Below, piece by piece: positions 34,358-56,411 of a stretch of DNA of 64,000 nt. The position numbers and the translations under genes are program-made. Source of the stretch: a virus; the IMG/VR virus record IMGVR_UViG_3300045988_122072, positions 99,338-163,337 of that record. One strand, written 5' to 3'. Numbering within the stretch: position 1 is the first letter of the stretch; every line of letters begins with the position of its first letter. Under the pieces are notes generated by a model. The model was given only the letters and a program-made list of their open reading frames with translations. It was not told the DNA's origin and did not search any database.

Positions 34358-37300
34358 TCATCTTGTGAACCTTTTTAAACTATTGTTAACGCCCTTCATA
34401 TAAGAATCTAGTTGAGCCTTAACTGCATCCTTAATATCAGGTATAGAATCCCTATCAGCATGTTCGATATTGATCATATTGCCGAATGACATATTAAGCT
34501 CAATACTATTATTGATAATATAAGGAGCGCCAATCTTAGGTTTATTTCTGTCAAGAATATCTTTCGGATCTAGAGTCCCAAGCTTCATAAGATTATCAGT
34601 AATATCACTTGGAATCACAGAACTGCCTTTACTTAGATATTGTAACCTACCATTCGTGTCTGCATGTAATACTAATTCTTCTAGCCCAAGTTCGTCAGTA
34701 ATTGCAAATTGGTCGTTTGGAACTTTCTTAATACCTTTTGCATATCCCTCTATGTCGCTTAACTTGATCCAGCCAGTATACTGTCCGTTTCTGCCAATTA
34801 GCACTTCAGAGCCACTAACTTGATAAACAGTAAATGTAGAACCAGGAACCCAAGATTGCATTCTAGTACCATTGCCGCCATCTCTAGTAAAGTGAGTAGC
34901 AGACTTCTTAACAGTCACGCTAGAACCATTAGCCGGAGCAGCAGGTTTTTGAGGAGCACTAGGTTGTTGTGGAGTAGATGGCGTTGGAGTAGTATATGTC
35001 GCACTAGATGTCTTGTTGGCATTTTGATTAGTAGCGTCAATTAAATGTCTTGCTGTCTCATCCGCCGCAGCTTGTAAATCAAGAAGTTGTTTCTTAATTG
35101 CTTCTAGTTGCGCAGTAAACGCACTTGTAGATGTATTTAATTGATCTTGATAAGTACCTATCGCAATTACGCCTTGTTCCCAAGGATTTGTAATTGCTTC
35201 TGACAAATTAATGCCATATTCATCGGCAATTTCTTTTAATGTCCCTGCAACTACTTCTGTATTTCCAGTAATTGTCGCAAAACTATCAGCGATTACTTGC
35301 TCAACATTCTTTAGATATTCATCAAGAGCTTCCATCTCTTTTTCTTTTTCGTCTTGATAGTTCTCTGCTTGATCGTCCAACGCATCTTGTTGTTTCTCGA
35401 TACTATGACTATAATATAACTCATCTAATTCTTCTTGTGCTGCGGCAAGTTCCGCTTCAAGCTTCTTTCTTCTGGCAATAGCACTTGCGGAATTATCCCC
35501 AGCTATTGCAGCAAGTTGCTTTTGAATATTTGCAATATTCTTTTGTTGCTCTTCTACCTGCTTAGAGAAATCATGAGCATCTTTAGAAAGTTGCAATTCC
35601 TCTTTCTTTTTATTTATAAGCTCATTATAAGCGTCAATTTCCTCTTGCATCGCATTTTTTGCAGCATCAACACGAGTTTTATTAAGAGCAATAAGAGCAT
35701 CTTTTGCAGCCTCATATGACTTTATACTATCCCATTGTCCGTCTTTGAGTTCTTGTAGTTTTTCGTTATACTCATCTGTACTATACTTTCCAGCGGCATA
35801 TTCTTGATTAAGGTATTCAATTTGTTCTGCATATTGTTTTGCCCTATATTGGGCGCGTTCCATTTCTTGGGCAAGTAGACCCATTTTAGTGATGCCCTCA
35901 TTAGTCCAATTGCCCATTTCATCGGCAATATCCTCATCATCGATTAAATCGCCTAAATTAGATATTTCATTGCCGACATTATCAATAGCTTTAATAAGAC
36001 CATCAAAGTTATCCCAGTGTAACTGATTGATAGAATTTTGGAATCCTTCAATCTCTTTACGGCAGTCAATAATAGCCTTGTCAACATCTTGAATTGCGGC
36101 GACCCCTTCATACCATTCCTCAGAGCCGACATCAATATTGCCAGCAGAAACCTGAGCATCAAATTCTTTTTGCATGTCATTGCGTTTCTTTTGAAGTTCA
36201 TCGAGTTCTTTGATGCTATTCTTAATCATTTCTTCATACATTACTGCAGAAGTACGTTCGCCTTGCTCGTCTATCAGATCAACGTTCGCCTGAAGCAAAT
36301 CGTTAAGAGTTGTAATCTTAGTAATAACTCTATCATACTCATCCGCAATAGTTTGCACTTTTTGTAATGAGAGTGATGTAATTTCTTTCTTGACTTGTTG
36401 CTGTTGTGTTCTTACATCTGATGCTTTTTGTGCCCATTCACGATAGTTATTAATTGCCTCTACAACTTCTTGATTAGCTTCTCCTAAGAATTCTGTTAAA
36501 GCAACACCGCCATTTTTAGCAAGCTCTTGATATTGCTGTGGTATCTTCTCTAAAAGTTGTGCGGCATAATCCGCATAAAGTTTATAACCTTCTCCAAGTT
36601 CTGTCAATTTATACTTATTAACATTGATCATTTGATCTTGAATATCATTTTTAGCAGAAATACCTACGGCATTTTCTAGTGCTGCGGACATATAATTTAA
36701 ATCATCATCAATCTCTTCAAGCAAAACTGCGAACCAATCGAACATTTCTTCAAAATCATTGGCAGCATCAGAAAGATCATCTCCAGCGTCAGATAAACTA
36801 TCTGCTGCATCATTCAAATCTGTCCAGAAATTATCATTCTTAGCGCCACTATAATAAGTTGGCGTCGTATAATCTGGAACGATTGTTACATGTGCATTAC
36901 CTTCAGAGTAGGCTTTGCCACGAGAATTGATATGCCCGTTCTTGAACAACTCTTCGGTTTGCTTGTGATTAAAGATAATTGCATTCTTTGGCAAATCTAC
37001 AAATTCTGCGCCATTATCTCCAACAGTATAATATTTGCCAGTTTTAGGGTCTACAACGGTTTCCATCCCGAGTTCGCCAACTAAAGCATCATCTTCTGCT
37101 TGTGGCAATCCCCAATTACCAGATGCATGAGCTGTGCCATCTGCATATATTGTCAGTCGTCCGCTCGCACCAGGAGTATGAACTGTTTGTTCGGTTCCCT
37201 TACCGATGGTTTGATAAGCTGTTGTAATTGTAAATGTTTTATCACTAATGCTTGTCGCATTAAGCTTATCAAGTTTCGCTTGAACTGCACTTACGTTTTC

Positions 37301-40300
37301 TCCTGTTGCTACAAGCTCAGAAGATGTAGATTCAATCTCGCTTTCTAGATTTGAAATAGCTCCAGTATCTCCAACATAATGGAGTAATTTAGCCGTTTTA
37401 TCTGCATCCTGACCAATACCTTCAAGAAGATTCTTAACGACAACTCCATCAACTTCCAATCCTTTGGTATCAAGTTGGAATAGTTCATCACTTGTCCATT
37501 TCCCATCATTTTGCTTCGCTTCGTCAATAAGTCCCCAGATATACTTATCTACAGTATTGGAGTCAAGCAATTGTGGGCCATTTTCTGTCTGTAAAATCGG
37601 AGTAAACGATATGTCTTCTCCATCAAATTCACCAACAGAACTTAATAAAGTGGAATATGTGCCAACCAAATCATCGGCTTTCATGCCCCAACTATCTATT
37701 GCGTCGCCATACTTATCAAGTGACTCTTCGTCCCAATATAGTTCCTGACGATCATTAGTATCTACATTCCCATATTTTGTTTGAGATAAATCTGTGCCAA
37801 TGTCATCTGCAAGAGATTTAGCATTAAGTACATCTGTTACATATTGATTAATAAGATTGTCAAGTTCTCTCATTCCGTCAGAAGTGTCATCAATGGCAGA
37901 CGCTACCTCTTTGCCAGTATAAGAACCGTTGCCCTGCAAATCTTTTACAACGCCAGCAAGGCCAACTGAACTAAAGCCAGATGATTCAACGGCTTTGTCT
38001 CCGCCGAGACTAAACATTTCCATAATAGTATTAAGATAACCATCTTTATATTTGGAAAGTTCGCCCTCAAATCCAGTCCAATCTTTTTCATCATACTCTC
38101 CAGGAACAGCACGAATAACCAAGTTATACTTATCAGAATCAAGAAGATCCTGCGTTGATCCATTCGTGACAAGACCATCTATATAGTCGGCAAGTGCATC
38201 AGATGTTAAAACATCTCCATTCTCAAGAACAGGAGTAATATCAATAGTATACTTATTCTTATCCCCAATTGTTACAGTCTCTGCGGAAGTACTTGCATAG
38301 ATTTCTCCGTCAGAGCCGATGAATGAATTGTATCCTCCACCCATAGCAAGATCATGTTCATACGATGGAGATAAATGTGGACGTTTACGAAGGTCTACAT
38401 TACCGTTTACCAATTTTTCATATTGCGCGCACATTTCTTCAGCATATTTAGCAAGCTTATTAAGTTTTAGCTTATCAAATATGTTGCTGATAACATTTGT
38501 CCCGCTTGCATATGCTTTGCCTCTACTATTAATATAACCATTTTTAAGCAGAGATTTTGTTTGCTTATGGTTAAATATAATATCGCCTTTTTTGACATCA
38601 GCAAACTCTGCGCCATTTTCTCCAAGCATATCCCAACGATTTCCACGCACACGAAGTTCTGGGCCTAATTCACCAACTAAAGATGTATCAGCTGATTCTG
38701 CACCCCAATTGCCAGAAGCGTGAGCCGTACCATTAGCCATTGTAGAATTTAATTCATAACGGCTACGACGTCCACTATGCTTCGTCGCTGTCTGATTTTC
38801 ATTTACCTCACGATATGTAGTAGTTACAGTAACACCAGTAGGAACTCTGTCAATTGCGTCAATCAAATTATTAATTGATTTTACGGCAGCAGTGCTATCA
38901 ACACTTGGGTCTGGGAGTGCCTCAATAGCCTTCTTCGCTGCTTCTGCGGCAGTTTTTACTTCTTCAATTTGTGCCTTTGCCTCTTCTTTATTTTCAACAA
39001 GAAGGTTAATAACTCCTTTGTCATTCAATAAATCCACGTACTGTTGTAGCTTCTGACGCTCATCATCAGTGATCTCTACATCTGGCTTGATTTTATATCT
39101 ACCATCTTCTCCAAGCTCTACAAGCTTACTATCATCTATATTAGCTATATTCGCTTTGACTGCCAGCTCGTTATTATTTGCTTTCCACACAGCCATTTGA
39201 GAGTCTATGTCATCTAACGCAAGCTGAATTGATACCTCTGTGGGTTCTTCTAGATTGTACTTTTTCTTTAATGCCTCTCCAAGTTGTTCAGTTAATTCTT
39301 TAACTTTTTTAGTTTGTGCATTTATTTCTTCTTGAGTATATCCACTATTAGGTTGATTCATTTCATTCAGCTTTTTCGTAGCTTGTTCAACTTCATCTTT
39401 TAAATTTGTGACTTCCTTCGTGACATTTTGATACTCTACAGCATTCTTTCTTGCATCTTCTGCGCAACCTTGTAGCTTACTATTAGCTTCCTGATATTTT
39501 TGTGCCCATTCTTCAACGCCAATTTCATTATTTGCTAAAGCGACATCCAGCTCCGCCAAATTTTTAGTCGCCATAAAAATATTGCCTTCAAGACCTAAGT
39601 CAAGCTGGTCGAAAACGGAACCAAAGTCTCCATTTAACCATTCTGCATCATAAGAATCAATTTCTGTAAACATTGCAAAAGCCATTTCTTTTGTAATTTT
39701 CATCTTATCACAGAAATCATCTAATGTTTTAATATCACTTGAAAGCTCAAAATGTTGCCAATCACCTTTATTTGTAAATACCCCTTTTTCTTGAGCGCTT
39801 TCAATGAACGCCTGAACATTATCTAAGGTCATCTCTGCGCTTTCAAGGGTGCCATCATCACTAAATTTCAATGTAAAATATTTACTGAAATCCGAATTCT
39901 TTAAATAATTGGCAATAGCAGCGACTTTTTCTTCTACCGTATCAAAACCAGCATAAACATCTTCTGGAATCATACCTGCCACAGCAGCCTTAAAAGATTC
40001 TGTTCCAAGTTTTGCTGATTGCAATCCTTCAATAAGTCCAGAAATCATATCTTCTGCTTTGCTGCCATAATCCTTTGCTTCATCGGCAGATTTTGCGTCT
40101 TCATATTTTTGATATGCATCCGCAGCTCCAAGCAACTTCTGTTCAAGAAGGCTATACTTTGCGATTGTTCTTTCTACTGCTCCCATTTCTTTATAAAGAG
40201 CATTAATTTCTTTTGCGTTAGCTTGCGCGAGTTCGCCATTTGCTCCAGTTAATTGCTTAATTTTCTTATACAGCTCATAATACTTTAATCTAGCTTGAGA

Positions 40301-42892
40301 CCTTTCAGTTCTTGCATTTTGAGCAGCTTCTTGTCTCTTCTTTGTAATCAGCTTGTTAAGCAGTGACGCATTTTTAACCACGTATCCATTTGTTGTGTCA
40401 ATTGCATCTGCATATTCTTTTTCATCACCAATGAGTGTTTTTAATGCTTCGCCCTGTTCGTCAGTAAGTTTTATTTTATCATAAACTACTTCGTTTTGAA
40501 CAGATTGTGCACTAGTAACTTTATCAATTTCATCAGCATAATTAGAAAAAGTACTACCAACTGGATCGACTTTATTAAGCTCAGCGTGTGCGGCGGCAGA
40601 ACCTAAAGAATTAATTTGATCCACAGCATCTTGTGTACTAAGCCCAATTTTATTTAACTCATTCCTAAATTCGCTATAATCTGAACCATTTAACGAATCT
40701 GCTGTAAGTTCTCCAGTCTCCGCCAAAGAATATAATTTCTTTTTAACCTCTGGATACTTTTCTAATAGAGCATCAAATTGTTCGGTATAATATTCACCTG
40801 GGTTAATTGTTTTATCTATATCAAGTGCCATTTGCTTAAGCTTATTTGCGAAATCATCATCGACATTTTCGCCATAATTATCTAGATAATCATATAGCTC
40901 TGTTCCATATGTAGATAATGTTTCTTTAAGATTTTGCATTGATGATTCAATTGACTTCTTTTTAGAATCTAGGGCAGACTTTTCGTCCTCACTCATTGCA
41001 CTAGTATCTGTATTAATAAGCTCATTCCATTCTTGCCTTAACTCATTATATTTTTCAATGCCCTTTTGAATATAGCCTTCTTTGTCTATACTACCATCAG
41101 AAATATATTTTAAATCTCCATTCAGTTCATCAGATATTTGTGCCTCAACTCTTAGTAACTCTGCTACTGCCTCATCGCTTAATTCTCCCCATTGCGATAC
41201 ATCGGCAAGCATATTATACAACTTTTCAGAATACGGTTTAATTGCATTTCTTAAATTATCATTAATGATTTGATTATTTTTTGCATTTTCTATTTCAGCC
41301 TTGGCAATTGTGGCATTACCATACCTTTCGTCATCTTTATTGGTTTTAACTTCTTCTATGCTTAAGTTTTTAACATTAAAATCTTTTTTATAATCTTCTT
41401 TTGTTTCTTTCTGTAGTTCTTTTTGCTTAGAATCTTTGCTTTCGTTTAACAGTCTTAATCTTCTTTCCAATTCCTCATTGGTTTGTTTTAAAGTTTCTAA
41501 TTCTTCTTTTTCTACAAAAGATAGGTTATGTTTTCCTTCTAGCTCTTCAATTCTATTTTTAGTAGTCTCAAGTTCAGAATTTAGGCTTTCAATTTCATTA
41601 TTTAGATCTTGAATTTCATTCTTTAATTTCTCTGATGCTGGAGTCATATTAGCTATCCAAGTAACCAACGATATAACTAAAGTAATAGCCATCAAAATCC
41701 ATCCAACCGGATTAGACGCCATTAAAGATTTCAGTGCTGCCGCAACGCCATGAATAGACGTAGAAAGTCCTTGATTCGCAGCGGTCAAACCAAATGCAGA
41801 TATAATTTCTGCGCCCTGAGCGGCAGTTAATGTCCCCGTTGCTACCGCTTCTTGAACTTTTGCTAATGTCAGTTCTGTTTCTCCCTGAGTTAAAAGCCAG
41901 TTGGTTGATTCAGCAGAAAGCTTTACTGCTCCCTCAGCAGCCATTGCTGCAGCATTTGCAGCAGTAACCGTAGTTTGTTCAGTTTTTGCAGTCGTTACTT
42001 GGGCCTCTGATACTGCCTGTTGTATATTCGCTTTATCTACTCCGTTTTTGGCCATTGCTTCTTCTATTTGTGCCTTTGTTAAACCAGCAGAAGCAAGAGC
42101 TGCCGCCTGTTGCTTCGCGGTTAAATCACTAACTGCGGCAGCATACGCACTAAGATTTTGCACATTAAATTCGGCAGCAGATATTTTACCAGCTTCTCCA
42201 AGTCCATTTAATGATTGAATTGCCTTAATTTTCTCCAATGCCTGTCCATAATTAGATACATTGGCGGAAATTTCTTTAAACATAGTAACTGGGTTTATCT
42301 TTTTAGAGATTAATAAATATGAAACTACTCCTGCTAATACTGATTTAAATAACCCAAATGAGTCTACAGCTTTTACAACTGCGGTTCCTAAATTAACGAA
42401 AAATTTAATCCAGCTACTGTCGAGCGCATCAGACCACATTGTCTGAACTGCATTTTTAAATAGGGTGATTCTTCCCTGAATGCTGTTAAGTTGTTTTTCA
42501 TTTTCAGCCATTGCAGAACCTTCTGCATCTAATGCGTCTTGATATGCACCTTCAAGGTCTTCAATATTGGTAAGCATTGCAGCCATAGCATTTGAACGGT
42601 TTTTACCAGCGAGCATTTCAAGTAATGCCGCCTGATCAATGTCGCTCATATCTTTCCAGACAGTCGCAATTTCTTTTATAATATCATATGTTGCCTTATA
42701 GTCGCCGGTTTCAGTTAAAATATCTACACCAGTTAAAGCTTTAACTTTAGATTGAAGCTTGCTGACACTCTCTACTACATTATCAGTTTCTTCGCCTAGT
42801 GATTCCAATTCCTCTACACTTGTACCTCTAATACGTAGTGAGATGGTACGGAGGGCACTTCCTACGCTTGATGGATCCTGTAATACTTTATT
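34358..42892 (-). CDS. Tape measure protein, exon 2 (2,844 codons)
   Basis: The in-frame extension upstream of track ORF (34358..42808) reads NKVLQDPSSVGSALRTISLRIRGTSVEELESLGEE.., the second half of the TP901-type TMP core. TM segments (WILMAITLVISLVTWI) are followed by about 2,000 aa of helical sequence. There are two copies of the 'GTAHASGNWG...LVGELG.E....FNHKQT....NG.INSRGKAY' end module and a C-terminal SH3-like segment. Confidence 0.8.
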   Translation of the reverse strand, partial: NKVLQDPSSVGSALRTISLRIRGTSVEELESLGEETDNVVESVSKLQSKVKALTGVDILTETGDYKATYDIIKEIATVWKDMSDIDQAALLEMLAGKNRSNAMAAMLTNIEDLEGAYQDALDAEGSAMAENEKQLNSIQGRITLFKNAVQTMWSDALDSSWIKFFVNLGTAVVKAVDSFGLFKSVLAGVVSYLLISKKINPVTMFKEISANVSNYGQALEKIKAIQSLNGLGEAGKISAAEFNVQNLSAYAAAVSDLTAKQQAAALASAGLTKAQIEEAMAKNGVDKANIQQAVSEAQVTTAKTEQTTVTAANAAAMAAEGAVKLSAESTNWLLTQGETELTLAKVQEAVATGTLTAAQGAEIISAFGLTAANQGLSTSIHGVAAALKSLMASNPVGWILMAITLVISLVTWIANMTPASEKLKNEIQDLNNEIESLNSELETTKNRIEELEGKHNLSFVEKEELETLKQTNEELERRLRLLNESKDSKQKELQKETKEDYKKDFNVKNLSIEEVKTNKDDERYGNATIAKAEIENAKNNQIINDNLRNAIKPYSEKLYNMLADVSQWGELSDEAVAELLRVEAQISDELNGDLKYISDGSIDKEGYIQKGIEKYNELRQEWNELINTDTSAMSEDEKSALDSKKKSIESSMQNLKETLSTYGTELYDYLDNYGENVDDDFANKLKQMALDIDKTINPGEYYTEQFDALLEKYPEVKKKLYSLAETGELTADSLNGSDYSEFRNELNKIGLSTQDAVDQINSLGSAAAHAELNKVDPVGSTFSNYADEIDKVTSAQSVQNEVVYDKIKLTDEQGEALKTLIGDEKEYADAIDTTNGYVVKNASLLNKLITKKRQEAAQNARTERSQARLKYYELYKKIKQLTGANGELAQANAKEINALYKEMGAVERTIAKYSLLEQKLLGAADAYQKYEDAKSADEAKDYGSKAEDMISGLIEGLQSAKLGTESFKAAVAGMIPEDVYAGFDTVEEKVAAIANYLKNSDFSKYFTLKFSDDGTLESAEMTLDNVQAFIESAQEKGVFTNKGDWQHFELSSDIKTLDDFCDKMKITKEMAFAMFTEIDSYDAEWLNGDFGSVFDQLDLGLEGNIFMATKNLAELDVALANNEIGVEEWAQKYQEANSKLQGCAEDARKNAVEYQNVTKEVTNLKDEVEQATKKLNEMNQPNSGYTQEEINAQTKKVKELTEQLGEALKKKYNLEEPTEVSIQLALDDIDSQMAVWKANNNELAVKANIANIDDSKLVELGEDGRYKIKPDVEITDDERQKLQQYVDLLNDKGVINLLVENKEEAKAQIEEVKTAAEAAKKAIEALPDPSVDSTAAVKSINNLIDAIDRVPTGVTVTTTYREVNENQTATKHSGRRSRYELNSTMANGTAHASGNWGAESADTSLVGELGPELRVRGNRWDMLGENGAEFADVKKGDIIFNHKQTKSLLKNGYINSRGKAYASGTNVISNIFDKLKLNKLAKYAEEMCAQYEKLVNGNVDLRKRPHLSPSYEHDLAMGGGYNSFIGSDGEIYASTSAETVTIGDKNKYTIDITPVLENGDVLTSDALADYIDGLVTNGSTQDLLDSDKYNLVIRAVPGEYDEKDWTGFEGELSKYKDGYLNTIMEMFSLGGDKAVESSGFSSVGLAGVVKDLQGNGSYTGKEVASAIDDTSDGMRELDNLINQYVTDVLNAKSLADDIGTDLSQTKYGNVDTNDRQELYWDEESLDKYGDAIDSWGMKADDLVGTYSTLLSSVGEFDGEDISFTPILQTENGPQLLDSNTVDKYIWGLIDEAKQNDGKWTSDELFQLDTKGLEVDGVVVKNLLEGIGQDADKTAKLLHYVGDTGAISNLESEIESTSSELVATGENVSAVQAKLDKLNATSISDKTFTITTAYQTIGKGTEQTVHTPGASGRLTIYADGTAHASGNWGLPQAEDDALVGELGMETVVDPKTGKYYTVGDNGAEFVDLPKNAIIFNHKQTEELFKNGHINSRGKAYSEGNAHVTIVPDYTTPTYYSGAKNDNFWTDLNDAADSLSDAGDDLSDAANDFEEMFDWFAVLLEEIDDDLNYMSAALENAVGISAKNDIQDQMINVNKYKLTELGEGYKLYADYAAQLLEKIPQQYQELAKNGGVALTEFLGEANQEVVEAINNYREWAQKASDVRTQQQQVKKEITSLSLQKVQTIADEYDRVITKITTLNDLLQANVDLIDEQGERTSAVMYEEMIKNSIKELDELQKKRNDMQKEFDAQVSAGNIDVGSEEWYEGVAAIQDVDKAIIDCRKEIEGFQNSINQLHWDNFDGLIKAIDNVGNEISNLGDLIDDEDIADEMGNWTNEGITKMGLLAQEMERAQYRAKQYAEQIEYLNQEYAAGKYSTDEYNEKLQELKDGQWDSIKSYEAAKDALIALNKTRVDAAKNAMQEEIDAYNELINKKKEELQLSKDAHDFSKQVEEQQKNIANIQKQLAAIAGDNSASAIARRKKLEAELAAAQEELDELYYSHSIEKQQDALDDQAENYQDEKEKEMEALDEYLKNVEQVIADSFATITGNTEVVAGTLKEIADEYGINLSEAITNPWEQGVIAIGTYQDQLNTSTSAFTAQLEAIKKQLLDLQAAADETARHLIDATNQNANKTSSATYTTPTPSTPQQPSAPQKPAAPANGSSVTVKKSATHFTRDGGNGTRMQSWVPGSTFTVYQVSGSEVLIGRNGQYTGWIKLSDIEGYAKGIKKVPNDQFAITDELGLEELVLHADTNGRLQYLSKGSSVIPSDITDNLMKLGTLDPKDILDRNKPKIGAPYIINNSIELNMSFGNMINIEHADRDSIPDIKDAVKAQLDSYMKGVNNSLKRFTR

Positions 42893-42934
42893 CTTTTATA
42901 TTTAATACGTTTCGCAACAACGTATTGCATGTTA

Positions 42935-44080
42935 TTATTGATAATATTTATTTAAAAATTCATTCCATTGTTCCTCAGTGTTGTCACCATAACCATAAAT
43001 ATTATGAAATTGCTTATGAATATTTTCTGATATACATATATAACTATGATATTTTTCTTGCAAATCAAAAAATGTTTGGAATAATTCGTCTATTTGTTCT
43101 CCCGAATATTCTTTTACATCACTATATATTGGAAAGTTTATCTTATCAATTGCTTCGTCCAATATTAAATTAAACCCTCTTATATGATGAACAACTATAT
43201 GGGAGCGGCATCCAGTTATTTTACATGTATAATTATTTGCTTCTTTTATTTTATTTTTCCAAGGAATAAGCTTTTTTCTAATATATTCCGCAATAGTATC
43301 ATATCCCCTTTTATCTATTGGCCTATATAGTTTTAAGCTCCATAAATGTTGTGCAATTGCTTTTACTCCCCTATTAAGATACGATGCCAATTCTTCATTT
43401 GTATATTTTAAATAATTTTCTTTTAAATACAAATTCTCTTCTTCTGTATATGTTCGATTGGAATAATAAAAACTTTTTAAATTCAATTTTCTAGCTTGTC
43501 CTAATATCGACGATTTTGTACGTTTTGGGAGCATTGCCATTACCTCATCAAACGATATATTTGAATAATTCTCTTTTAAAATATCTATTTCATCATTTGA
43601 CCATTCTCTGTTAGATGTTAAATTTAATTCTACTGCCTTCCTGCTTATTTCTTTAACGGATCTATTGTTATTAAGCAAAGTACGAATATTTTTATATGGA
43701 ATTTTCCCATAATTGTTCATTAGTATATTTATTTCATTATCATTCCACGAAATAGCATTATAACGACATTCTTTAGAACAATAATGATGTGTATTCTTAT
43801 CAACTTCAGATATTTTTCTAAAGAATTGTCTTCCACAAAATTCGCATTTGCATTCTTCCTTCTTTTCTGTAGATTTTGTTCTACATTCAACACTACAAAA
43901 AATTTGTCCAGAATAAGCTGGCCTAAATCTTTCTCCACAAATCTCACAATTTCTATATTTTAGTTTTCCGTTATTTCTTTTAAATTCATTCATACAGTTT
44001 CTACTACAATACTTAGTATTTTCAAAATAATCTGAAAATTCTTTTTTGCAATTATTACATATATGATTATATTTTCCCAT
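42935..44080 (-). CDS. Intron-encoded HNH homing endonuclease with N-terminal zinc fingers and SANT/Myb-like repeats
   Basis: 381 aa. Three CxxC...CxxxC units (CNNCKKEF..CSRNC, CEICGERF..CSVEC, CEFCGRQF..CSKEC). Three 'W(S/N)(N/D)xEIxIL.xNY'-type repeats. C-terminal HNH 'CKITGCRSHIVVHHIRGFN...NIHKQFH'. Confidence 0.8.
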   Translation of the reverse strand: MGKYNHICNNCKKEFSDYFENTKYCSRNCMNEFKRNNGKLKYRNCEICGERFRPAYSGQIFCSVECRTKSTEKKEECKCEFCGRQFFRKISEVDKNTHHYCSKECRYNAISWNDNEINILMNNYGKIPYKNIRTLLNNNRSVKEISRKAVELNLTSNREWSNDEIDILKENYSNISFDEVMAMLPKRTKSSILGQARKLNLKSFYYSNRTYTEEENLYLKENYLKYTNEELASYLNRGVKAIAQHLWSLKLYRPIDKRGYDTIAEYIRKKLIPWKNKIKEANNYTCKITGCRSHIVVHHIRGFNLILDEAIDKINFPIYSDVKEYSGEQIDELFQTFFDLQEKYHSYICISENIHKQFHNIYGYGDNTEEQWNEFLNKYYQ

Positions 44081-44113
44081 AATTTTATCTCCCGTATATT
44101 ATCAAAATAAATT

Positions 44114-44287
44114 TCATTTTCTACTATAAAAAATAGCCAATGCATTAAAAAGATCTGACGATTTTGTATATTTATATGTAGTTACACCATTTATAATTTT
44201 AACAAAGGATGGTTTTATACCAATTGTTAATAAATAATCTCTCTCTGGTGTATATTGCGTAGAATATTCTTTATCAAATTTTTTCAT
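44114..44287 (-). CDS. Small intron-borne hypothetical protein (57 aa)
   Basis: GAGAGGGA lies upstream of ATG 44287, an internal Met of track ORF 44114..44311. It is the first ORF after the intron-internal promoter/leader. No family could be assigned with confidence. Confidence 0.4.
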   Translation of the reverse strand: MKKFDKEYSTQYTPERDYLLTIGIKPSFVKIINGVTTYKYTKSSDLFNALAIFYSRK

Positions 44288-44525
44288 ATTTCCCTCTCTA
44301 AATAATAACATGCCAATATATTTCTATATTGAATAGACCATATCTTCATCCTCAGCATTACCTGTTAGGAGCACACCATTTCGTTTAAAGGTATTTAACC
44401 AACGCCATTTGCGATTGCGTCCTACTCCTATTGATTTGAGTATTCGGGATTTTACCCTTATTTTATAATCAATTAGATATTCTCAAATCCCTTCATGGGG
44501 ATGGCCGTTGAACCTTTTGCTTGAT

Positions 44526-44571
44526 TTTAATTTTGTATTGTATATTATATCACAAAATTTAAATTTGTCAA
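44526..44571 (-). promoter_or_regulatory. Intron-internal sigma70-like promoter (extended -10) plus leader box
   Basis: On the minus strand: TTGACA (44571-44566), 16-nt spacer, TGaTATAAT (TATAAT 44549-44544), then ACAATACAAAATTAAA (44541-44526). Confidence 0.65.
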
Positions 44572-44722
44572 GCAACTTGGATGCTGATTGCCCAATCTTT
44601 ATAATTTTTAAACATTCACACCTGTTATTACTAACTATGTTGTAGTTTATAAAGCTCTAAGGGTTTCCCAGCAATTAAATGTGTTCAAATCATATATTTC
44701 TATATGAACAGCCATAAAATAT

Positions 44723-47700
44723 AGCTGCAGCAACCAGTGCTACACTTTGTTCAAGATTATTACCAGCAGCCATTAAGGAGCTTGCAGAATCTTGCAGTGC
44801 AGTCGCAATTCCGTCACTTGAGATTGCGAAATTGTTACCAATTTCATTTAACACGTCAACTACGTGCATACTATCTTTTGCGGCATATCCAAACGCCTGA
44901 ATAGTCGAGATAAGTGCCTCAGATGCCTTATCAGCATCAGTAAATTCAGAAACATTCAATAAGACGGCAGTACTCTTGGCGAGTTCTCCAGCTTCTTCAA
45001 TAGAATAACCAAGACGCGCCCAGGTTGCCGCCATATTGGTCAAATCAGATGTGGTTGCACCAACATTTGCTCCAGTCTGAGCCATTGTCTTTAAGAATCT
45101 CGCATATGTTTCATCTGTCTCATCAGTAACCTTTTTAAGTTCTGTTAATGCGGAATCTATATCTTGCACATATTGAGCGCCTTGTTTTATTGCACCCCAT
45201 ATTCTGTAAATGCTACCAAACGAAGCAAGATAAGTCCCTACTTCCTTAAATTTTCCTTTAATGCCATTAATAAAACTCTCAAATCCAGTTTCAACTGGCT
45301 TGATTTTTCCAGGTATAATTTCAACAGCGTTTCCTAACTCTCCCATGATCATTGTCATTTCTTGTACTTCATGCTTGCCAGTTCTTACTTCATAAGTCAT
45401 GGTACGAGTTTCTGCATTAAAGCCCTTAAAATTTGCTCCCTCAACAGAACTTACATAGCTTAACATTGCATTTTTAACAGCATCAATATCTTTTGGATTA
45501 ACATTAGCAAAGAATTTTTGGACATCCAAATCTGCTTGTTGCGAATTAATTTTACGTTGCGCTTCGTCCGCGCCTAACAATGCCTTTTCTGCCTCGGTCG
45601 CTCTATCTGCCAAAAGCTTCAATGCGGCTTGCTCTCCGTCAGAATCAGATAATAGTTTGCCGCTCTGAGCGAGTTCATCTTTTTTTTTCTTCAAAGCGTC
45701 TAAAGCATTAAAATATTCTTTGACAACAGTTACGTCATTAACATTAACGCTTTGATCGTTATATGAACTTAATGCTTGCTTAACATATTCTTCTCTACCA
45801 AGAACTTTTGTGGCGCTATTATATCCATATGCGTCTTTAGACTTCCCAATAATACCATTTCCAAGTTTGACCAATTCTTCTTGCGCAGCTTTTAACTTGT
45901 CAATGTTTTCATCAAGATTATCTGCAGCACTATTTCTAACAGCCTCTTGAGCCGTCCCATATGCCTTCATTGCTTCCTGATAAGCTTGCATTTCTTCGCT
46001 ATCCTTATCAAAGAACCCTTCTTTTTGTCCATCAACAATAGCCTGATTAATTTTATGAATAGAAGCAGTAACATTATCACAAGAATCTTGAAGCTTTTCA
46101 GATTGAATATAAGCAGCGTTAAATGCGTCACTCCAACTCATAATGACACTTGTTATTTTGCCATCAGCATCTACCATATCAAAAGATATCTTATCTTTAA
46201 CGAAATCATATTGGCTAAAATCATATTGGCTATTTTTAGATGTAGCATATTGTTTAGCGTAAGCTTCCATAATAGCTTGGCGATCTGTAAATAGCGTATT
46301 TTCTGAAATCTTATTATCTCCAGATATGATTCTGCCTTCTTTATCAAGCGCCTGATATGCGCTTTGTATCTTCGCATTTTTGGTTAATTCTGTTTGTAGC
46401 TCTTTGACTTTTGACACAGCACTGTCTAGTTTCTGAAGATCAGCATCGGTAATGACAGTTCCATTTTCTCCTTTTGCGCGAATATCCGCCGCTATCTGTT
46501 GTAGCTCTTTAAATTTGTTTGCATATTCTTGGACTTCGATATTATCTGTGCCAAGAATTTTTTGAATATCAGCATAATTCTTATCGTTCCAACTAAGTGC
46601 CTTACCAGCGTCTTTAATTGATCTTTTTGTCCACGCGGAAGTAGAGTCTGGATTAAGGGCGTCCATCTGAGCTTTTGTCAGAGTAGATTTAACCTCTTTA
46701 GTAGTTTCTTCTATTTCTTTTGTACCAATGCCAAGAGCCTCTTTTAGCTTAGACATTTCGGCGGCAATTTCATCAGCAGACAAACCTTTATATTCATTAT
46801 AGAATCCTCGCTCATAAGAAGTAAGCTTTTTACTCTCTAATGTAGCAAATAATGTGCGCATAGCCTGAGTCAATTGATCTGGCAGTGCGCTGTATTCTGT
46901 TGCAATACCGCCCATTGATTTATCATATTCACGATTTAGAATCTGAGAAATAAAATCTCCACCAAACTCTTTGGACAATAAATCTCTAATAACTCCTACA
47001 TAATCTTGTTTAGAAACATTAGTGTCATTATTTAATACACGGTCGTAATAAGACTGGAAATTGGCAATAACATTCCTTAATTTACTGTATTCTTCATCTG
47101 TTATAGAATATTGTTCACCAACATCATGCCCAGTGGAAATGTCGGATATTGACAGCATACCTCCGGCTTCTTTCACAACTCTTTGGAGATATCCATTAAG
47201 CATTCTTGCCATTTCTCCAGAATTTTGAGCGGCAATATCCTCTCCATTCGCAGTAGAGAACATGGCAGTGATAACATCGTTGATTATTGGATATTTTTCT
47301 GCGATATCTAAAGCAGTTCCAAAAGAATCTTTTCCTAAATCTATAGACATCATTTGACGCCCATAAATCATATTATATTTTTTTAAATTATTTTCGTCCG
47401 CAAAATCTGCCAATTGTTCAATATCTGAAAGGGAGAACATTAAATTATTGGTGCCTTTTTTATAAGCATGGGAATGCGTCATAGAATCTATTTCTTGTTC
47501 TATCTTATCAAACGTAACTTGGAACAGATTGCCTACTGCAAACTCAATTGCCTTCCCATCTTTTTCCGTAAAGCCATATTCTACATTTTGTTTTGAAACG
47601 TCTTTGCCATTATCAATTGCATTAGTTAGTGCAAGAATTGCAGTTTTAAATTGCTGGAACGTTTTTACGTTATTAAGCTCTGCGACATCAGTTGCTCTAT

Positions 47701-50700
47701 TTTCTTCATAGCCTAAAAGTTGTCTGGATTTTGCCGTATTAGTGCCTGCCTGTTTAAGTGCAGTAAGTTTATCATTGGCTAGTTTTTCTAATGCCGCAAG
47801 ACGAGCCTCTTGTTCTTTTTTGGTCATTTCAGAAACATCTTTTAATCCAGCAGCCGCAGATTCAGATCCAGCAGTCGCACTTTCAATGCCTTTTTCTATA
47901 GCTTTTTTAGCAACCTCCGATGTCTTCTTGACAACTTGTTCTGCACCAGTCTTGACAGTTTCAGCTATTGGAGTAGAATCAACTTCGCCAATTAATATAT
48001 CAAGATTTTGAATGTCAGAATCTGATCCGCCATACAACTTAGCATATGCTCTATTGCGAGCTTCTGTTATATTAGCAATTTCTTCTTTTGATATACCACC
48101 ATAGGCTTTCTGCTGTTCTATAGATAACTCTGCATCTCTAACTTCTCTTTCCAAAGCTTCTTTAATTCCAAGGAAATATGCATTTTTCTTTCTGTATAGA
48201 TCTGCTAGATTTACGCGGAATCCTTTGCCATCGGTAAATACTTTATCTTCAGCAGTTTCTTCTTCTAAACGAGTAACATCTTCAGAAATTGTACTCATAT
48301 ATGCCGAGATGCTTTCTCCTAACTTTTTATTTACAGAATCATATATTCTCTTACGGAGACTTTTTTCTAATTCATCTGCTTGATTAAAAACGGTACTAAC
48401 TTGCTTACCAAATGCTGTTTCAACTTGATCTTTGCCAGTACCCTTTGTCATTGTCATTCCACTTAATTTTGATTGTAAAATTCCTTTAAGCTGATCATCG
48501 ACAGAATCTTCTCCAAAATTTTCAACCAATAATTTAGCGAAATTGTCATAATAAATATCAAAGAATTTTTGTGTCTTTTTATTAATAATATTTTTAATCT
48601 CTTCTCCATTATTTAACGATGCTCTTTTAACATCAAAAATACCTCTTACACGAGAAATTTCGCTTATCAGCTCATCGTTAGACAAGTCTTCATTCTTTAA
48701 TATTTCTTCTATCGCAGCATTTTCGGCATTATTTATTTTTCTAAGTCTAGACTCTATTGCCTCTTGAATTTCCTGCTCCATAGTTGCCTGAGCAGTGTCC
48801 CATGCAGTTTGATGTAAAGCCACGCCAGCTTCATCATATTTAGACTTAACAAAATTAGAAGCAACATCTTGGTACATATTGTTTATTACTTCAGAAATAC
48901 GATTAGCAATTGCATTTTGAAGCTCATCAACTTTTTCTTGTGCTTTTTCATATAATGACGCCCTATAAGTTCTAAATTCATCTGTAGATGTGTAATTTGA
49001 AACGAACATCTTTTGCAGATTGTCTGCCGCAGATGATTTATTACCATATATAGTAGTAAATCCACCTTGCTCTTTATTGAATGTAAGCTTTTGTGCTTTC
49101 TGAACATCTTTCGTATAATCTCCAAGCTTGCTAATTTGTTCATTATTTCTGATAATGACTTGTTGAAGCTCTTGAATTTTTTTAAGTGCATTAAACTTTT
49201 TCTGCTCAGGGGACAAACTTTCATCAAAAATATTGGATGAGTTAATGCCGTTAATTTCTTTAAGCTTATTATATAACTCTGTTACTTCTGTATTTATAAT
49301 GTTTAAAGCTTGTGTTTTTTCACTAAGAGTTACTGGCGATGCCCCAGATTCCTCAAGCCTATTAATTTCCCGTACAAGTTCAAGCTCTTCGCTCTTTTTT
49401 TGATTATATTCAACTTGCAATTGAGCTACTTGTTTGTTTCTTTCTGCAATTTTTAATTCCTGTTCTGCTTTTTGAACTTGATTGTCTAAAGATTCTCTTT
49501 CTAACTCAATAGACTTTTTTTGTTCTACCAATGGCATCAACGAGGATCTTTGCGATGCAACAGTATCTTCATATTTATTAACAACGCTATTGCCAACTTC
49601 GTATTGTTGTAAAGGAAGTTTTGCCTTTTTAATATACGTACCATATTGCTGAATAATCGAAGAAATATAATTATTGATAACAGAATTTAGATTACTAATA
49701 TCAGCGTTAATTTCTTTTTTTGATCTTGCATTATCAACAGATTCTTTCAAAGCATCTATTTTACGCTGTAAGATTGCCTGAATTTCAGTGCTCCCTTTAT
49801 CATTCGCTTCTTTTAATCTTTGTTTATAATCCTTTAATTCAGCCTTCGCATTATCATAGTTACTTTTTTCATTAAATAATTCCGCTCTTTGCTGTAATAA
49901 AGTTTGTAGCTCTTTTGGGAAAATTTCTAAATTTGATAAATCAAAGTTCTTGCTATTTTTAAATTGTTGAAGGGCATCAATCTGTTGTTTTAAAGAATCA
50001 CGTACATTTTTTGAATTATAAAATGACTGTTTATCCATTCCAGCGAACAAATCTTTCAAATCTGCATCGTTTAACCCTAAATCATTGCTAATATTCATAA
50101 TAGAATCAAATAGGCCGTTTAAACTCTCTTGTGCTGTTTGAATTTGAACTGCGACTTTATCATATTCCGCTGTTCCGGCCTGTTTCCCTTTAAGGATTTT
50201 CTCAAGAGAAGATAAATCCTGCTGCCTTTGTTTGTATTCCTCAATAGTGGTCTGTAACTGTTCAAAAAGATTATCATCAAGTTTCTGTTTTTGTTCTGTA
50301 ACAGATTGCTGAATTTGTCTATTAATTTCCTGCAAAGTAGTCTCTTGTTCTTTTGCTTTTGATTCAAATTCAGAAGAAACTTTTTCTCCCTTTTGAACCT
50401 TAGTATAATTAACAAGTCTACTTTTACTTTGTTCTAACTCATTTTGTTTATCTGCTAATTCAATTTGATATTTAGACAACAATCCCTTATTTTCAGATTC
50501 CTTTGCGGCCGAAATTTTAGATTCAATTTCTTTAATTTCTTTGTCAATCGCTTCTTGTTTTTTTTGCTCAGTAGAAATGGCTTTACTTAAAAGCTCTGGA
50601 GATTCTTCGTATTTTTTATACTGCTTGGAAGTATTTACAGTAGTGGCCAATCTTGATTCTACTTGCTTTTTTGCCTCAAGTAGTTGAATATAATTATCAG

Positions 50701-53700
50701 ATAAGTTTTTCCCTTCAAACTTTAATGTGCTTTTATTTGGAGTTTTGCTCTGATACTTAACCATCAGATCATAAATGTCTTTTTGTTGTTTATAATCTGA
50801 TTTAAGTGATTCTATTTCTGAAGATTCAGAATAAGAAAAAGATTTAACACTATCGAGCACACTTTGTGCTGAAGCAACTCCGTCTCTAGCAACCTGCAGC
50901 TTTTGATTTATTTCTTCTTCTTGCTTTGCGAGTTGAGCAAATTTTTCATCTCTTGCTTTCTTAGCTGCCTCTAATTGTTCAGAACTCTTTTGAATATTTT
51001 CTTCAGCGACAGAAAGCCTTTCTCCCCAATCAATAGAATATTCATCATTTACTTTAATTTGAGACACGTCAAACGGTGCGGGTCTTGGGTTATCTTTTGA
51101 ATAGAATTGGGTTTGCGCACTTAACTTTGCGTTCTTATTCAAAAGATTATTAATCATTCTTAATGCTTTACGTTTTGACGTAGGGGAATCAGATCTGTCT
51201 ATTATCGTAGGTCTATTAATACCTTCATAATAAATATCGGCATTCAGATCAGACAACATATTATTGGAGATACCATAAGCTGTCATTTTACCTTTGCCAT
51301 TTTTCGCACTAGCTATTTTTAGTCCGGCTCCCTTTTCTCCTTTTCCAAGTTGTCCCAATAATGTCTGTCTAGAAATAACAACATTATCACCAGCAACCAT
51401 GCGATTTAACCAACTAACAATATCATTGGCAATTTTTGTAGACGCGTCATCCCCAGAAATTTTAGACATTGCATCAATAGCTGTTCTAAGAGCATCCCCA
51501 TGTATAATTTCTTCAGATGGATTAACCCCAACCATAGAATTTAAAAGAGTTTTTGTATCCTCACTTGCAGTCCCATAAAACTGCTTAAACATGTTTAATA
51601 ATGCAGTATACTCATTGCTCTCGCCTTTGGATAAGCCTTTAGTGGCAATCACTTGTTTGTTGTATTCATTTATATTAGAATATAATGTATTAATTGACTT
51701 CCCAATTTCATCAATATTAGCTTTATATTCTTCAGAAGAAGTTGTAGATTGTAAATCCTTTAAAAAACTACCTAGTTCAGATAACAGCTGCTTAGTGTCA
51801 CCTTTTTCTCCTTTAAGCGAATCAATAACGTCTGCCGTTCTTGCATATTTCTGATAAAACTTTAGCATTTCTGGAGCATTATAGTCTCTATTAATTTTTT
51901 CATTGCCAGAAATTGTAGATAAGCCTAAAGATTTAAACAGAGATTCTAATGTGCCGCTTTTACCAAGTAACGGGGATAATAGAGCAGTTTGATTCTTATA
52001 AGATCCCTTCCATTTACCTGATAGATCGGATAAGTCTGACCCCAAAAGTTCTCCCTTGAATCCGCCTGTCTTAGTATTCTTTTGCAAAAGCCCGGTTAAA
52101 ACATTTCTCACATATTCTTCTGTCATTTTTGACAAATCAGTATCTTCGCCAAAAATATTCTGCAAATAATTCGCCATAGGAGATAGCTTTGCCACTTTTC
52201 CATTTGTCATCTTCACAGTTCTGTCGCTAACTTCTTCACCCTTGGCAATTTTATCATTCATTGCTTTTTGTTTTGAAAGTGACTTATAATATGTCTCTCC
52301 AAAATTTTTAGCAAATGCAGTAAGCTGGGCAACCGTTTTTGACATCAGCACCGCGCTCTTACTATTTTCTGTAGATGCCATTTTCTGATCTCTTGCGGCA
52401 TCCGATTGAGCATCAGCAGCTCCTAAATTTTCAGAAGCAGCTTTAGATTGATCTGACGCGGCGCTTGCTTGAGTATTTGCAGCAGAACTTTGAGTATCAG
52501 CAGCGGATGCACTAGAAGTTGTAACCCCACTACCCAAAACTGGCATTACTCCGCCAGAATAAGTTGCCCCAGAAATGTTTGCAGATATATTAAATGTCTT
52601 ACTATTGAGAACATTTTCAATTTCTCCAATTAAAAACTCGCCATCTACATACAGTTTTAATGGCTGTTCGTTAAATAATGCTTCCATTGCAGAAGTAATA
52701 TTGCTAATATCTTTATTATCAAGTTTTAGCATATTCATCAATTGAGCTTTAATTTCTCTAGCATCCGCTTCAATTGAAGTTCTTGCATCATGAATAGACT
52801 TTTTTAACGATTCTAGTTGTTCTTTTAATTTTGCAGATGGATCTGTTTTTTCGCCTTCGCCTTCTTGTTTACTATCGTCAAACGCTATTGACATCGGGAT
52901 TTTTTTGATTCTTGTCGTTTGTTTAATAATTTTATCAATAAAACCATTAATCTTTTCTACATATGCATCAATTTCTGCATCTGCAGGAACATCAAGCTTT
53001 AATTCTATAGACTTCAGACCTGCTTTTTCAAGCATTTCTTGTAGCTGGCCTGATAATTGTTGCACGGACTCTTTTGCACTATTCAATCTATTTTCTAATT
53101 CAGTTACAACTTTGTCTAAATTAGACCCATATGTACTTATTTCTTCCTTGAATGCCGAGCTGTTAATTCCAAGATCTTTTGATAAACTTCCAGAATATTT
53201 ACGTCCGATTGCTATAATATTTTGAAGAACGTCTCCGAGCTTTTGTAGCTTATCTATAGGAAGATTTTGCAAAAAGTCAACATCGACATCATTCCAGCCA
53301 ACGATTTTATCAAATTCGTCACCTAGCTTGCCGAATTCTTTAACTATATCTTTATTTTTTAAATCAATTGTAATTTCTGGATTTTTTAACTTTGCTAAAA
53401 AGTCTTCCATTTCCTTGCCCTTTTTGGCAAGACCCATATCAGAATTTTTAAATTTATTTACCACATTAATAGCCGCATTAAAAGATGTAACAATCTTATT
53501 TGCAGTCTGTTCTACACTAGTTTGTGTTTTGACTGCATCAACTGTAATATCTTTAAAAAAAGTTTTTCCAGTTGGATGATTACTTTTATATTGTTGTCCA
53601 ATCGTATTATAAAACCCAACAATTTTTGCAGCAAGCCCATCGAACCCTTCACCGGCCTCCGAAAGCTGTGGCATCATGCCCTTAAGATCGGTCAAAGTTT

Positions 53701-54319
53701 GTGCAAGCGCTCTGCTGCTTACGTCCCACCCCTTGTTTGTTGCTTGTGTAAGACCAATCTGAAACTCACTAACCATTTGGGTCAATTGCCCCATTAAAGA
53801 GCTAAGCTTTTCTTTATCGGTTGATTTGCTAATATCATTAATAATGCCTTTAATAGACTCTGCGGTATCCTTAAGTTTACCAGTCGCTCCCTTTTCGTCA
53901 TAAACAAATAGATCTGAAAGTCTGGAAAATAGATCAGACGGAAGTGATTTAACAGTATCACTAAGGCTTGCAAAATTTTCTCTAATATCTTTGATACTTC
54001 CAGAAAGTTTTGCAATATCATCCCTATTTTGCTTTAATCCGTCAAAAATCTTAGGTGCGCTAACGCCGCCTAATTCTCTTTCAAGCTGAAGCAATCTATC
54101 TACAGATTCAACAATGTCCGCAGTTTGCTGTTTTACTTGCTCAAATCCTTTATTCCCTTTATTCTGAATACCAGAGTCAAAACTCTTTTGCGTTGCTTTA
54201 ATTTTTTTATCTAAATTTTCTAAACCATCACTTAATGTTTTTAATTCTTTTTGATAATCTTTATTTAATTCAACAGTAATACCATACGCATATTGCGCAC
54301 TAGGCCCTCTGCTACCCAT
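44723..54319 (-). CDS. Tape measure protein, exon 1 (about 3,199 codons from ATG 54319; track start TTG 54337)
   Basis: GAGGTG lies 8 nt upstream of ATG 54319. About 3,000 aa of Lys/Glu/Gln-rich coiled-coil sequence runs into the first half of the TP901-type TMP core ('TYARFLKTMAQTGANVGATTSDLTNMAATWARLGYSIEEAGE...AISSDGIATALQDSASSLMAAGNNLEQSVALVAAA'). After that the frame decays into IFYGCSYRNI*. Confidence 0.8.
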
Positions 54320-54329
54320 ACTTTTCACC

Positions 54330-54821
54330 TCACCCAATTCTTCTTAATCCTTGTGACTGGAAATAAGAATCCATTTCAAATATATATGTTTCTTCAAATT
54401 TTTCCATTTTTTCTCCAACTGGCGTTCCAATAAAAGTGCCTGAATATCCTGGCCAGCCATGTGCTCCGATAGCAAAATCGCTCATAATAATACCACCAAT
54501 ACCAGAACCCCATCCATCTTTTGCGCCAACATCTCGATTGTACACTTTAGAGAAATCTGCCCCTCTGTCCGTAAATCTTACTCCTGTTTGTATTTTATTT
54601 GCATTCCATAATGTATATGGAGCATAACCATAATCTCTTAAAGTATCTGTTCTTTCGTAATTATCAGAACTATATTCGCTATAATAATTATCCATCCAGC
54701 GCTTTGCCTCTTTCGTAAAATCAACTCTCGCCTTTTTTGCTGCCCCGTTAACAATGCCTCTGGTATTTTTCTCCGTATCTTGCATAATCTTATCAATAAA
54801 AGCTTTCATGGTTGATGCCAT
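54330..54821 (-). CDS. Hypothetical protein upstream of the tape measure gene
   Basis: 163 aa with AAAGGAGCGG upstream. Its stop lies 8-10 nt before the TMP ATG. No family recognised. Confidence 0.5.
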   Translation of the reverse strand: MASTMKAFIDKIMQDTEKNTRGIVNGAAKKARVDFTKEAKRWMDNYYSEYSSDNYERTDTLRDYGYAPYTLWNANKIQTGVRFTDRGADFSKVYNRDVGAKDGWGSGIGGIIMSDFAIGAHGWPGYSGTFIGTPVGEKMEKFEETYIFEMDSYFQSQGLRRIG

Positions 54822-54835
54822 ATTTATCCGCTCCT

Positions 54836-55941: not shown

Positions 55942-56036
55942 ATAACTCCTCCTCATCATCATTACAAATTTCCGTAAACCTACATTACGAGTTGCAAACT
56001 TACGCAAACCTATAATGCAACTCCTTTTATCCTTTT

Positions 56037-56060
56037 AAAAAAGGGGAGCATAAGCTCCCC
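56037..56060 (-). terminator. Rho-independent terminator after the lysis cassette
   Basis: On the minus strand: GGGGAGC-UUAU-GCUCCCC (56060-56043) followed by UUUUUU (56042-37), starting 6 nt after the holin stop. Confidence 0.75.
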
Positions 56061-56065
56061 TAATA

Positions 56066-56395: not shown

Positions 56396-56411
56396 AATAT
56401 CTCCTCCTCGC

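Follow-up and report, generated by a model that had tools for sequence, protein, structure and literature searches.

The window, a stretch of 64,000 nucleotides (nt) from the IMG/VR virus record IMGVR_UViG_3300045988_122072 (positions 99,338 to 163,337), contains a gene for a very long tape measure protein (TMP). Features are located on the minus strand unless marked (+). The listing of open reading frames (ORFs) places two very long frames on this strand between 54,337 and 34,358, exactly where a reading of the letters alone, made before any database search (the sequence-only reading), had reported them. ORF 54337..44690 comprises 3,215 codons from a TTG. ORF 42808..34358 comprises 2,816 codons, also from a TTG, and its frame is open for 30 codons further 5′. 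The length of both frames in DNA of about 35% G+C rules out chance ORFs. The likely start of the TMP is the ATG at 54319, with the ribosome-binding site GAGGTG 6 nt 5′ of it. In five of six independent assemblies, gene callers reported a product of 3,209 amino acids (aa), which corresponds to this ATG and a reading through to a stop codon inside an intron.

The gene is divided into exon 1 (44723..54319; 3,199 codons from ATG 54319), a group I intron (42893..44722; assigned from a match to Rfam RF00028 and a reading of the sequence) and exon 2 (34358..42892; 2,844 codons and a stop codon), which begins AAT AAA GTA (NKV...). In the Rfam alignment, the 5′ splice site follows U 44723, which forms the U.G pair of P1 between the exon sequence GCAGCU and the intron sequence UAUGGCUGU. 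On the 3′ side, G 42893 is the sole G preceding the in-frame continuation of the core domain (...AAATATAAAAG|AATAAAGTATTACAGGAT). The U.G pair and this G define an intron of 1,830 nt from 44722 to 42893. The 5′ boundary reads GCAGCU|AUA and the 3′ boundary ...AAAAG|AAU. A possible P10 exists, as intron nt 4-9 can pair with exon 2 nt 2-7. Joining of the exons yields 6,043 aa (6,049 counted from the TTG), within the 6,040-6,050 aa and in accordance with the exons of 3,199-3,205 and 2,844 codons proposed by the sequence-only reading. The spliced junction reads ...LVAAA|NKVLQDPSSVG..., the predicted tryptic peptide across it is LVAAANKVLQDPSSVGSALR, and the intronless allele has the sequence GCTGCAGCT|AATAAAGTATTACAGGAT at the insertion site.

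Profile searches support one spliced protein. On exon 1 alone, PF10145 matches aa 3,084-3,204 and breaks at profile position 123 of 201, at the exon end. After splicing, the match extends over positions 3-201 of 201 and rises from 55.8 to 86.7 bits (cut-off 33.2). The spliced junction region reaches 110 bits on TIGR01760 (cut-off 28.8). Both profiles define a TP901-type core, split by the intron, at about aa 3,053-3,353 (42431..45163), and both score above their cut-offs for the core that had earlier been recognized without a search. Over this core, 113 GenBank phage records align without interruption. The tape measure family PHROG 4211 is matched by the two exons in order, positions 120-758 by exon 1 and 785-1719 by exon 2.

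A scan of IMG/VR for relatives yielded 71 related loci; related contigs are numbered with L. Eight intronless relatives have the motif AAANKV[LI]QDP ungapped within single ORFs. In the intronless record IMGVR_UViG_3300045988_120991, a single uninterrupted ORF encodes a TMP of 6,035 aa (contig extended), which starts MGKRGPSAQYAYGITIE like the window protein. The N-terminal residues 1-2,136 of the window align in order, with 38-40% identity, within single ORFs of L003 and L011. This colinearity identifies the N-terminal half as conserved coding sequence fused to the core and not as a separate gene, so that a separately translated protein of the N-terminal 3,000 aa, named beforehand as a possible refutation, has evidence against it. 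Comparisons between strains gave synonymous to non-synonymous changes of 100:42 and 127:48 in exon 1 and of 67:29 and 94:27 in exon 2, thus about 2.3-3.7 to 1, indicating purifying selection on both halves. The locus is, with good confidence, a single TMP gene of a gut phage, with a mobile group I intron inserted where the gene is most conserved. In this respect the sequence-only reading, which had proposed one spliced TMP, is borne out by the completed core profiles, the ordered PHROG 4211 match and the uninterrupted relative.

The intron and its homing endonuclease

The match to RF00028 covers 419 nt (44732-44314) and the full model (positions 1-253) with 39.9 bits and an E-value of 3.8e-8. 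At Rfam gathering thresholds, no match was obtained in the window or in seven related loci; the matches were retrieved by an E-value threshold. The ribozyme core from P1 to P9 was located by the Rfam alignment at 44314..44722, and its J8/7-P7 has the typical group I sequence AAGAUAUGGUC. An HNH homing endonuclease of 381 aa is encoded within the intron (42935..44080), identified by PHROG 1271 (E 1.3e-17) and PHROG 1891 (E 1.8e-6). Pfam yielded only a weak NinG match for this protein. A small ORF from the ORF listing (44114..44311; 65 codons from the first ATG, 57 aa according to gene callers) is located between the ribozyme core and the HNH gene. It has no family match in Pfam or PHROG, is kept in all strains and is lost in ORF-less copies of the intron.

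Between strains, all 1,830 nt of the intron are identical, against exon differences of 1.0-1.9%. The strains had been found via the exact HNH protein, a bias that leaves 684 intron nt outside the HNH gene unaffected. L085 carries an intron 94.7% identical to that of the window, flanked by exon stretches of 600 nt with only 77% and 71% identity. In L024, L032 and L050, a copy of 503 nt without ORFs occupies the same site. It has kept the ribozyme core and the last eight HNH codons, and the retention of these codons identifies the copies as deletion derivatives. The copy in L024 scored 42.1 bits on RF00028. Judged from these comparisons, conservation is far higher in the intron than in its host gene, and the intron appears to be mobile.

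Other introns have entered the same region. L024, L032 and L050 contain a second group I intron, intron A, 170 nt upstream (1,796 nt, 474-aa ORF, 52.1 bits). For intron A in L024 and in the merged contig 3300045988_106160, the only junction that restores the protein is ..IQA|YGYAA.., which leaves a C and not the usual U as last exon nucleotide; the spliced frame is open over 6,205 aa. In L013, a relative with 90-95% identity, yet another group I intron, a short one, is inserted 27 nt downstream of the window's site. At least three different introns are thus inserted at sites no more than about 200 nt apart in close relatives, and the core is split between two long ORFs in about 30 of the 71 related loci. 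The TMP core (window 44723-44895; L024 8194-10674; L013 10600-10930) is an intron hot spot. A free-standing GIY-YIG/NUMOD endonuclease gene was observed in L085 (8062-8877) between the lysis genes and the TMP gene of this 6,371-aa relative, which again points to frequent movement of homing endonucleases through this module. In CB457P1, a relative of the phage PMBT24, the TMP is distributed over two ORFs, separated by an unrelated ORF of 157 aa (PMC11035940). This split is probably another unrecognized intron or endonuclease insertion.

In the proposed mechanism, the precursor mRNA would splice itself and the ribosome would synthesize the full-length TMP. During co-infection, the HNH enzyme would nick or cut intronless alleles, into which the intron would then be copied by homing.

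Anatomy and length of the protein

The sequence-only reading had placed the recognizable core and membrane segments in the middle of the protein. This holds: the core is followed by two hydrophobic, membrane-segment-like stretches of 19 residues each, aa 3,377-3,395 (42305..42361; Kyte-Doolittle mean 1.61) and aa 3,595-3,613 (41651..41707; mean 2.27). About 4,900 aa of the TMP are poor in proline and rich in helix formers by composition. An AlphaFold model of aa 1-1,180 consists of 70% helix and 1% strand, at low confidence (pLDDT 54). A coiled coil of about 3,000 aa had been proposed ahead of the core. The region is indeed largely helical, but an α/β island, aa 2,241-2,480, is embedded in it.

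This island (46880..47599), defined by a conservation profile and a structural model, is a conserved α/β domain resembling JAMM/MPN. The AlphaFold2 model reached a pLDDT of 78.9 and a pTM of 0.78. The candidate metal ligands E2247, H2282, H2284, S2296 and D2299 are invariant in eight sequences down to 41% identity. The invariant pattern N[IV]EYGF...THSH.Y.KG.NN..[FL]SL.D corresponds to the JAMM/MPN+ signature E..HxH..SxxD, and the domain conforms to the full form E-x(n)-H-x-H-x(7-11)-S-x-x-D. A Foldseek search against the PDB returned mostly JAB1/MPN structures among the top 30 matches, all of them weak (E 0.02-0.2, probability up to 0.97, TM about 0.35). The best fold neighbours were the Prp8 Jab1 domain, STAMBPL1, AMSH, AMSH-LP and Sst2; BFVD contributed further fold matches, among them a deubiquitinase and RadC-like JAB proteins. 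At E≤10, the sequence profile found no PDB chain, and no JAB family of Pfam was matched. Given weak fold matches and no match of sequence profiles, the domain is called JAMM-like and is not assigned to the JAMM family. A HMMER search of 1.84 billion representative proteins found it only in six clusters of giant TMPs and in one weak match. Among the relatives, it is present in long forms only, always 941-951 aa ahead of the core.

The C-terminal half contains a glycine-rich, helix-poor region (36890..38752) with two copies of a motif of about 85 aa (GTAHASGNWG..LVGELG..NGAEF..IIFNHKQT..NG.INSRGKAY) at aa 4,587 and 5,118, about 530 aa apart. Each copy is directly followed by a segment with an initial GNVD motif. 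PHROG 167, a tape measure family, matches over the first copy; no Pfam family matches the motif. The C-terminal end is rich in proline and SH3-like. In the C-terminal 1,460 aa, no significant lytic or other Pfam domain was found.

With 6,043 aa, the window TMP is about 20% longer than those of the Thermus phages P74-26 (15,021 nt, 5,006 aa) and P23-45 (gp96, 5,002 aa; PMC10770324). The expectation that it exceeds this class was therefore correct. P74-26 has been described as the phage with the longest tail known. The window protein is neither unique nor the longest of its family. Besides the intronless relative 3300045988_120991 (6,035 aa), the doubly spliced TMP of contig 3300045988_106160 reaches 6,205 aa, and L085, with the same intron at the same site, 4,185 + 2,186 = 6,371 aa; the spliced frames of both longer relatives stay open. 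Shorter relatives have TMPs of about 5,343-5,681, 4,270, 4,100, 3,950, 2,600 and 2,420 aa.

Among the relatives, the core lies at varying distances from the N-terminus, in steps of about 550, 1,600, 2,100, 3,260, 3,470 and 4,150 aa. Within 10 kb of the core, nothing homologous to window aa 1-2,870 was located in 12 shorter relatives. Both observations characterize the N-terminal part as a replaceable module. Two other origins of the length were considered and rejected. A fusion with separate upstream genes of the shorter relatives lacks the homologue of aa 1-2,870 nearby in these 12 genomes, and an expansion by internal repeats finds no protein or DNA repeats besides the two copies of the 85-aa motif.

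The family is without a cultured member. A search with the first 2,440 aa in 5.8 billion proteins returned 51 clusters, all from Logan or ENA assemblies and none with a name or an NCBI source. No near-identical DNA was found among GenBank phages, in which the best core matches have 29-34% identity over about 370 aa. The GenBank core matches inspected were Sundance (2,528 aa), PMBT24 (1,508 aa) and FADO (3,080 aa). A search of the available literature revealed neither a TMP longer than 5,006 aa nor an account of this gut phage family.

Predicted tail and alternative readings

The classical rule of 1.5 Å of tail per TMP residue was established for lambda and TP901-1. PMBT24, the closest cultured relative, has a TMP of 1,508 aa and a tail of 238 nm, equivalent to 1.58 Å per residue. 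The comparison of TMP and tail length in a relative, which the sequence-only reading had proposed as a check, thus agrees with the rule in this one phage. For 6,043 aa, 1.5-1.58 Å per residue predict a tail of 906-955 nm; the approximately 4,900 helix-rich residues alone would correspond to about 735 nm. The tail of P74-26 has been described as nearly 1 µm long. A tail of about 0.9 µm (range 0.75-0.95 µm) is predicted for the window phage, and a length of at least 0.8 µm is slightly more probable than a shorter one. In the proposed mechanism, the mostly helical TMP would lie stretched in the tail tube with the C-terminus at the tip, and tube growth would stop at its N-terminus, resulting in the length of about 0.9 µm. 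During infection, the TMP would exit first, and the two hydrophobic segments might help to form a membrane channel. The embedded JAMM-like domain would either trim the TMP or act in the host.

Several points weigh against a spliced TMP that acts as a ruler over its full length. About 1,100 of the 6,043 residues are helix-poor (aa 2,241-2,480, 4,581-5,240 and 5,801-6,043), and these may not contribute 1.5 Å each. The embedded protease-like domain makes a processing of the TMP plausible. The G/GT chaperone frameshift was not found upstream of the gene, where a -1 overlap spans eight codons and has no clear slippery site, and no major tail protein gene is present within the window. The value of about 0.9 µm is an extrapolation for a phage family known from sequences alone. 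The Rfam score of the intron is below the gathering score of 50.

A rather unlikely alternative accepts the splicing but takes the N-terminal 2,500-3,000 aa not for a ruler but for cargo or a pro-region, which would be cleaved (possibly by the JAMM-like domain itself), fold elsewhere or be ejected into the host. The core and the C-terminal half alone would then set the tail, at roughly 0.45-0.6 µm. A precedent exists in P23-45, whose TMP has an enzyme instead of a ruler in its N-terminal 1,200 aa. The conserved position of the protease-like domain upstream of the core in every long-form relative fits such a module, as does the N-terminal part being the most variable section of the protein, with the core at about aa 550 to 4,150 in the relatives and no homologue of aa 1-2,870 near the shorter ones. 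However, the extension outside the JAMM-like island has the proline-poor, helix-former-rich composition of ruler segments, and the model of aa 1-1,180 gives no confident globular enzyme. PDB and Pfam matches are absent, and the TMP length rule held in PMBT24. A virion RNA polymerase of the P23-45 type in the N-terminus was considered separately and rejected: the DxDxD motif at aa 344 is not conserved, the model contains 1% strand and the PDB gave no match.

A delivered effector module, and not a ruler only, is a more doubtful reading still; the N-terminal half would then travel down the tail as a thread and leave it before the DNA. If it existed, the JAMM-like domain could act in the host as an isopeptidase, e.g. 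by removing ubiquitin-like conjugates of bacterial defence, or alternatively cut the TMP into working pieces. It would represent a second independent case of enzyme injection with a tape measure, after the polymerase fusion of P23-45.

Two separate genes without splicing, with products of 3,209 and 2,816 aa that act as a two-part tape measure or are unrelated tail proteins, are very improbable. Gene callers do annotate the ORFs separately, the database entries of most relatives are exon 1-like products of about 3,150-3,360 aa, and the low Rfam score is compatible with this reading. Against it, the break interrupts a conserved domain between two codons, at exactly the point where the frame of intronless relatives continues. 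Exon 2 offers only a TTG as start, with a GAGG 2 nt upstream at poor spacing. The insert itself combines a complete group I core with a homing endonuclease and is also found in ORF-less derivatives, and relatives carry different introns at nearby sites.

An artefact of assembly, such as a chimera or a repeat that was collapsed or expanded, has a negligible probability and is excluded by DNA that has no tandem or dispersed repeats in 34.0-54.5 kb (20.5 kb scanned) and by at least six independent contigs of 105-166 kb from different samples, which keep the gene order of the window and are co-linear with it over 21 kb at 98.5-99.1% identity. The mis-assembly that had been named as a refutation of the sequence-only reading is thereby contradicted. 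In a collection of public assemblies, 110 blocks record the exact HNH protein, and 49 of these blocks include contigs of 50-200 kb; diverged relatives retain the same TMP architecture. Samples rich in this phage include ERZ1034928, with a contig at 168x coverage, and ERR11457768.

Gene neighbourhood, host and known systems

The genome of the gut phage is about 155-166 kb in size. Upstream of the TMP gene are, in order, genes for an endolysin, a holin and a RuvC-like resolvase and two small ORFs of 188 and 163 aa (54330..55402). The latter occupy the position expected for tail assembly chaperones; neither has a family match. The RuvC-like Holliday junction resolvase, the holin and the endolysin are located within the tail block at 55447-57867 (minus strand). 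The order holin, RuvC, TMP matches that of the Enterocloster phage PMBT24, a cultured siphovirus. Directly downstream, in the position of a distal tail protein, a DUF6558 protein of 366 aa is encoded (33185..34285); Pfam DUF6558 and DUF6558_C were matched on the identical gene in L079-L084. It is followed by a minor tail protein of 1,638 aa (28254..33170; PHROG 6211, E 1.5e-36) and a tail protein.

In the endolysin (56671-57867), aa 104-317 probably bind the cell wall and are up to 81-84% identical to segments from Ruminococcus/Oscillospiraceae. Such endolysin-like segments occur at several places in the chromosome of Ruminococcus callidus. In species-level genomes, relatives of the endolysin are found mostly in metagenome-assembled genomes of gut Ruminococcus/Oscillospiraceae and in Ruminococcus callidus. 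One of the GenBank core matches originates from human faeces. The endolysin relatives and this faecal match suggest gut Clostridia, namely Ruminococcus/Oscillospiraceae, as the likely host.

Further genes were observed outside the tail block. The large subunit of a ribonucleotide reductase looks split at 19465-22189 (+): ORF 19465-20292 covers profile positions 247-489 and ORF 20750-22189 positions 512-973, separated by a gap of about 457 nt. ORF 18863-19468 may represent the N-terminal piece. A group I intron in this gene was considered and rejected, as no Rfam match was present in the gap at E≤0.01. A transposase-like gene (PHROG 506, E 9e-136) is located at 15787-16899 (+). An integrase-like gene (24517-25668 (+)) adjoins a strand switch at about 25.7-26 kb, where the GC skew flips its sign.

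The current tail-length record is held by thermophilic Thermus phages with TMPs of 5,002-5,006 aa. The window represents a recurrent, undescribed lineage of human-gut phages with TMPs of 6,035-6,371 aa. Its close relatives span 2,400-6,371 aa, mostly via one module, and form a natural series for the ruler rule at its extreme. The lineage bears on the assembly of micrometre-long tubes, on DNA delivery and on the question why a gut phage needs such a reach. Gene callers split genes of this kind at introns, and surveys of TMP length consequently miss them.

Group I introns with HNH endonucleases are established in phages, e.g. the intron with I-HmuI in the DNA polymerase gene of SPO1 and those of Staphylococcus phage Twort. 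The window intron shares with them the group I core, the HNH gene, the location in the most conserved part of an essential gene and signs of horizontal spread. It differs in its host gene segment, the TMP core, in ORFs placed after P9 near the 3′ end, and in a score below the gathering threshold. For cluster J mycobacteriophages, introns in capsid and tail genes are mentioned (PMC3706429).

The JAB/MPN (JAMM) proteins, including RadC-like JAB proteins of phages, have the E..HxH..SxxD signature in common with aa 2,241-2,480, whose modelled α/β fold has JAB1/MPN proteins as its best, though weak, structural neighbours. An MPN domain is also present in tail protein K of lambda. Unlike these, the window domain is outside the sequence matches of Pfam JAB and the PDB and is embedded in a TMP. 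After the polymerase of P23-45, it would be the second type of enzyme-like domain found inside a giant TMP.

YomI of SPbeta and the TMPs of Sundance (2,528 aa) and FADO (3,080 aa) belong to the closest GenBank relatives of the core (29-34% identity) and to large siphophage genomes of 125-165 kb. They reach half the length at most, their core lies about 700 aa from the N-terminus, and they lack a counterpart of the N-terminal extension. A lytic transglycosylase is annotated in YomI and Sundance; the window TMP showed no lytic domain. PMBT24 has the order holin, small ORFs, RuvC-like nuclease and TMP, a TP901-type core with 30% identity and a host among gut Clostridia. Its TMP is four times shorter and lacks the N-terminal extension.

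P23-45 gp96 and P74-26 P74p95 are likewise giant TMPs of phages with non-contractile tails, described among the longest-tailed viruses known, and have a long N-terminal region with an embedded enzyme, which in P23-45 is an RNA polymerase. A sequence relation to the window TMP is not detectable, the PDB sequence search with the latter being empty. In the window TMP, neither a conserved DxDxD motif nor a β-barrel-rich N-terminus was found. Further differences are a length greater by about one fifth, the mid-protein position of its TP901-type core, the interruption of its gene by an intron and its origin in a mesophilic gut setting. The giant TMP is extreme in size but of a known kind. Its architecture is new and combines a core in the middle of the protein, an extension of about 3,000 aa that varies between relatives, an embedded JAMM-like domain and a mobile intron.

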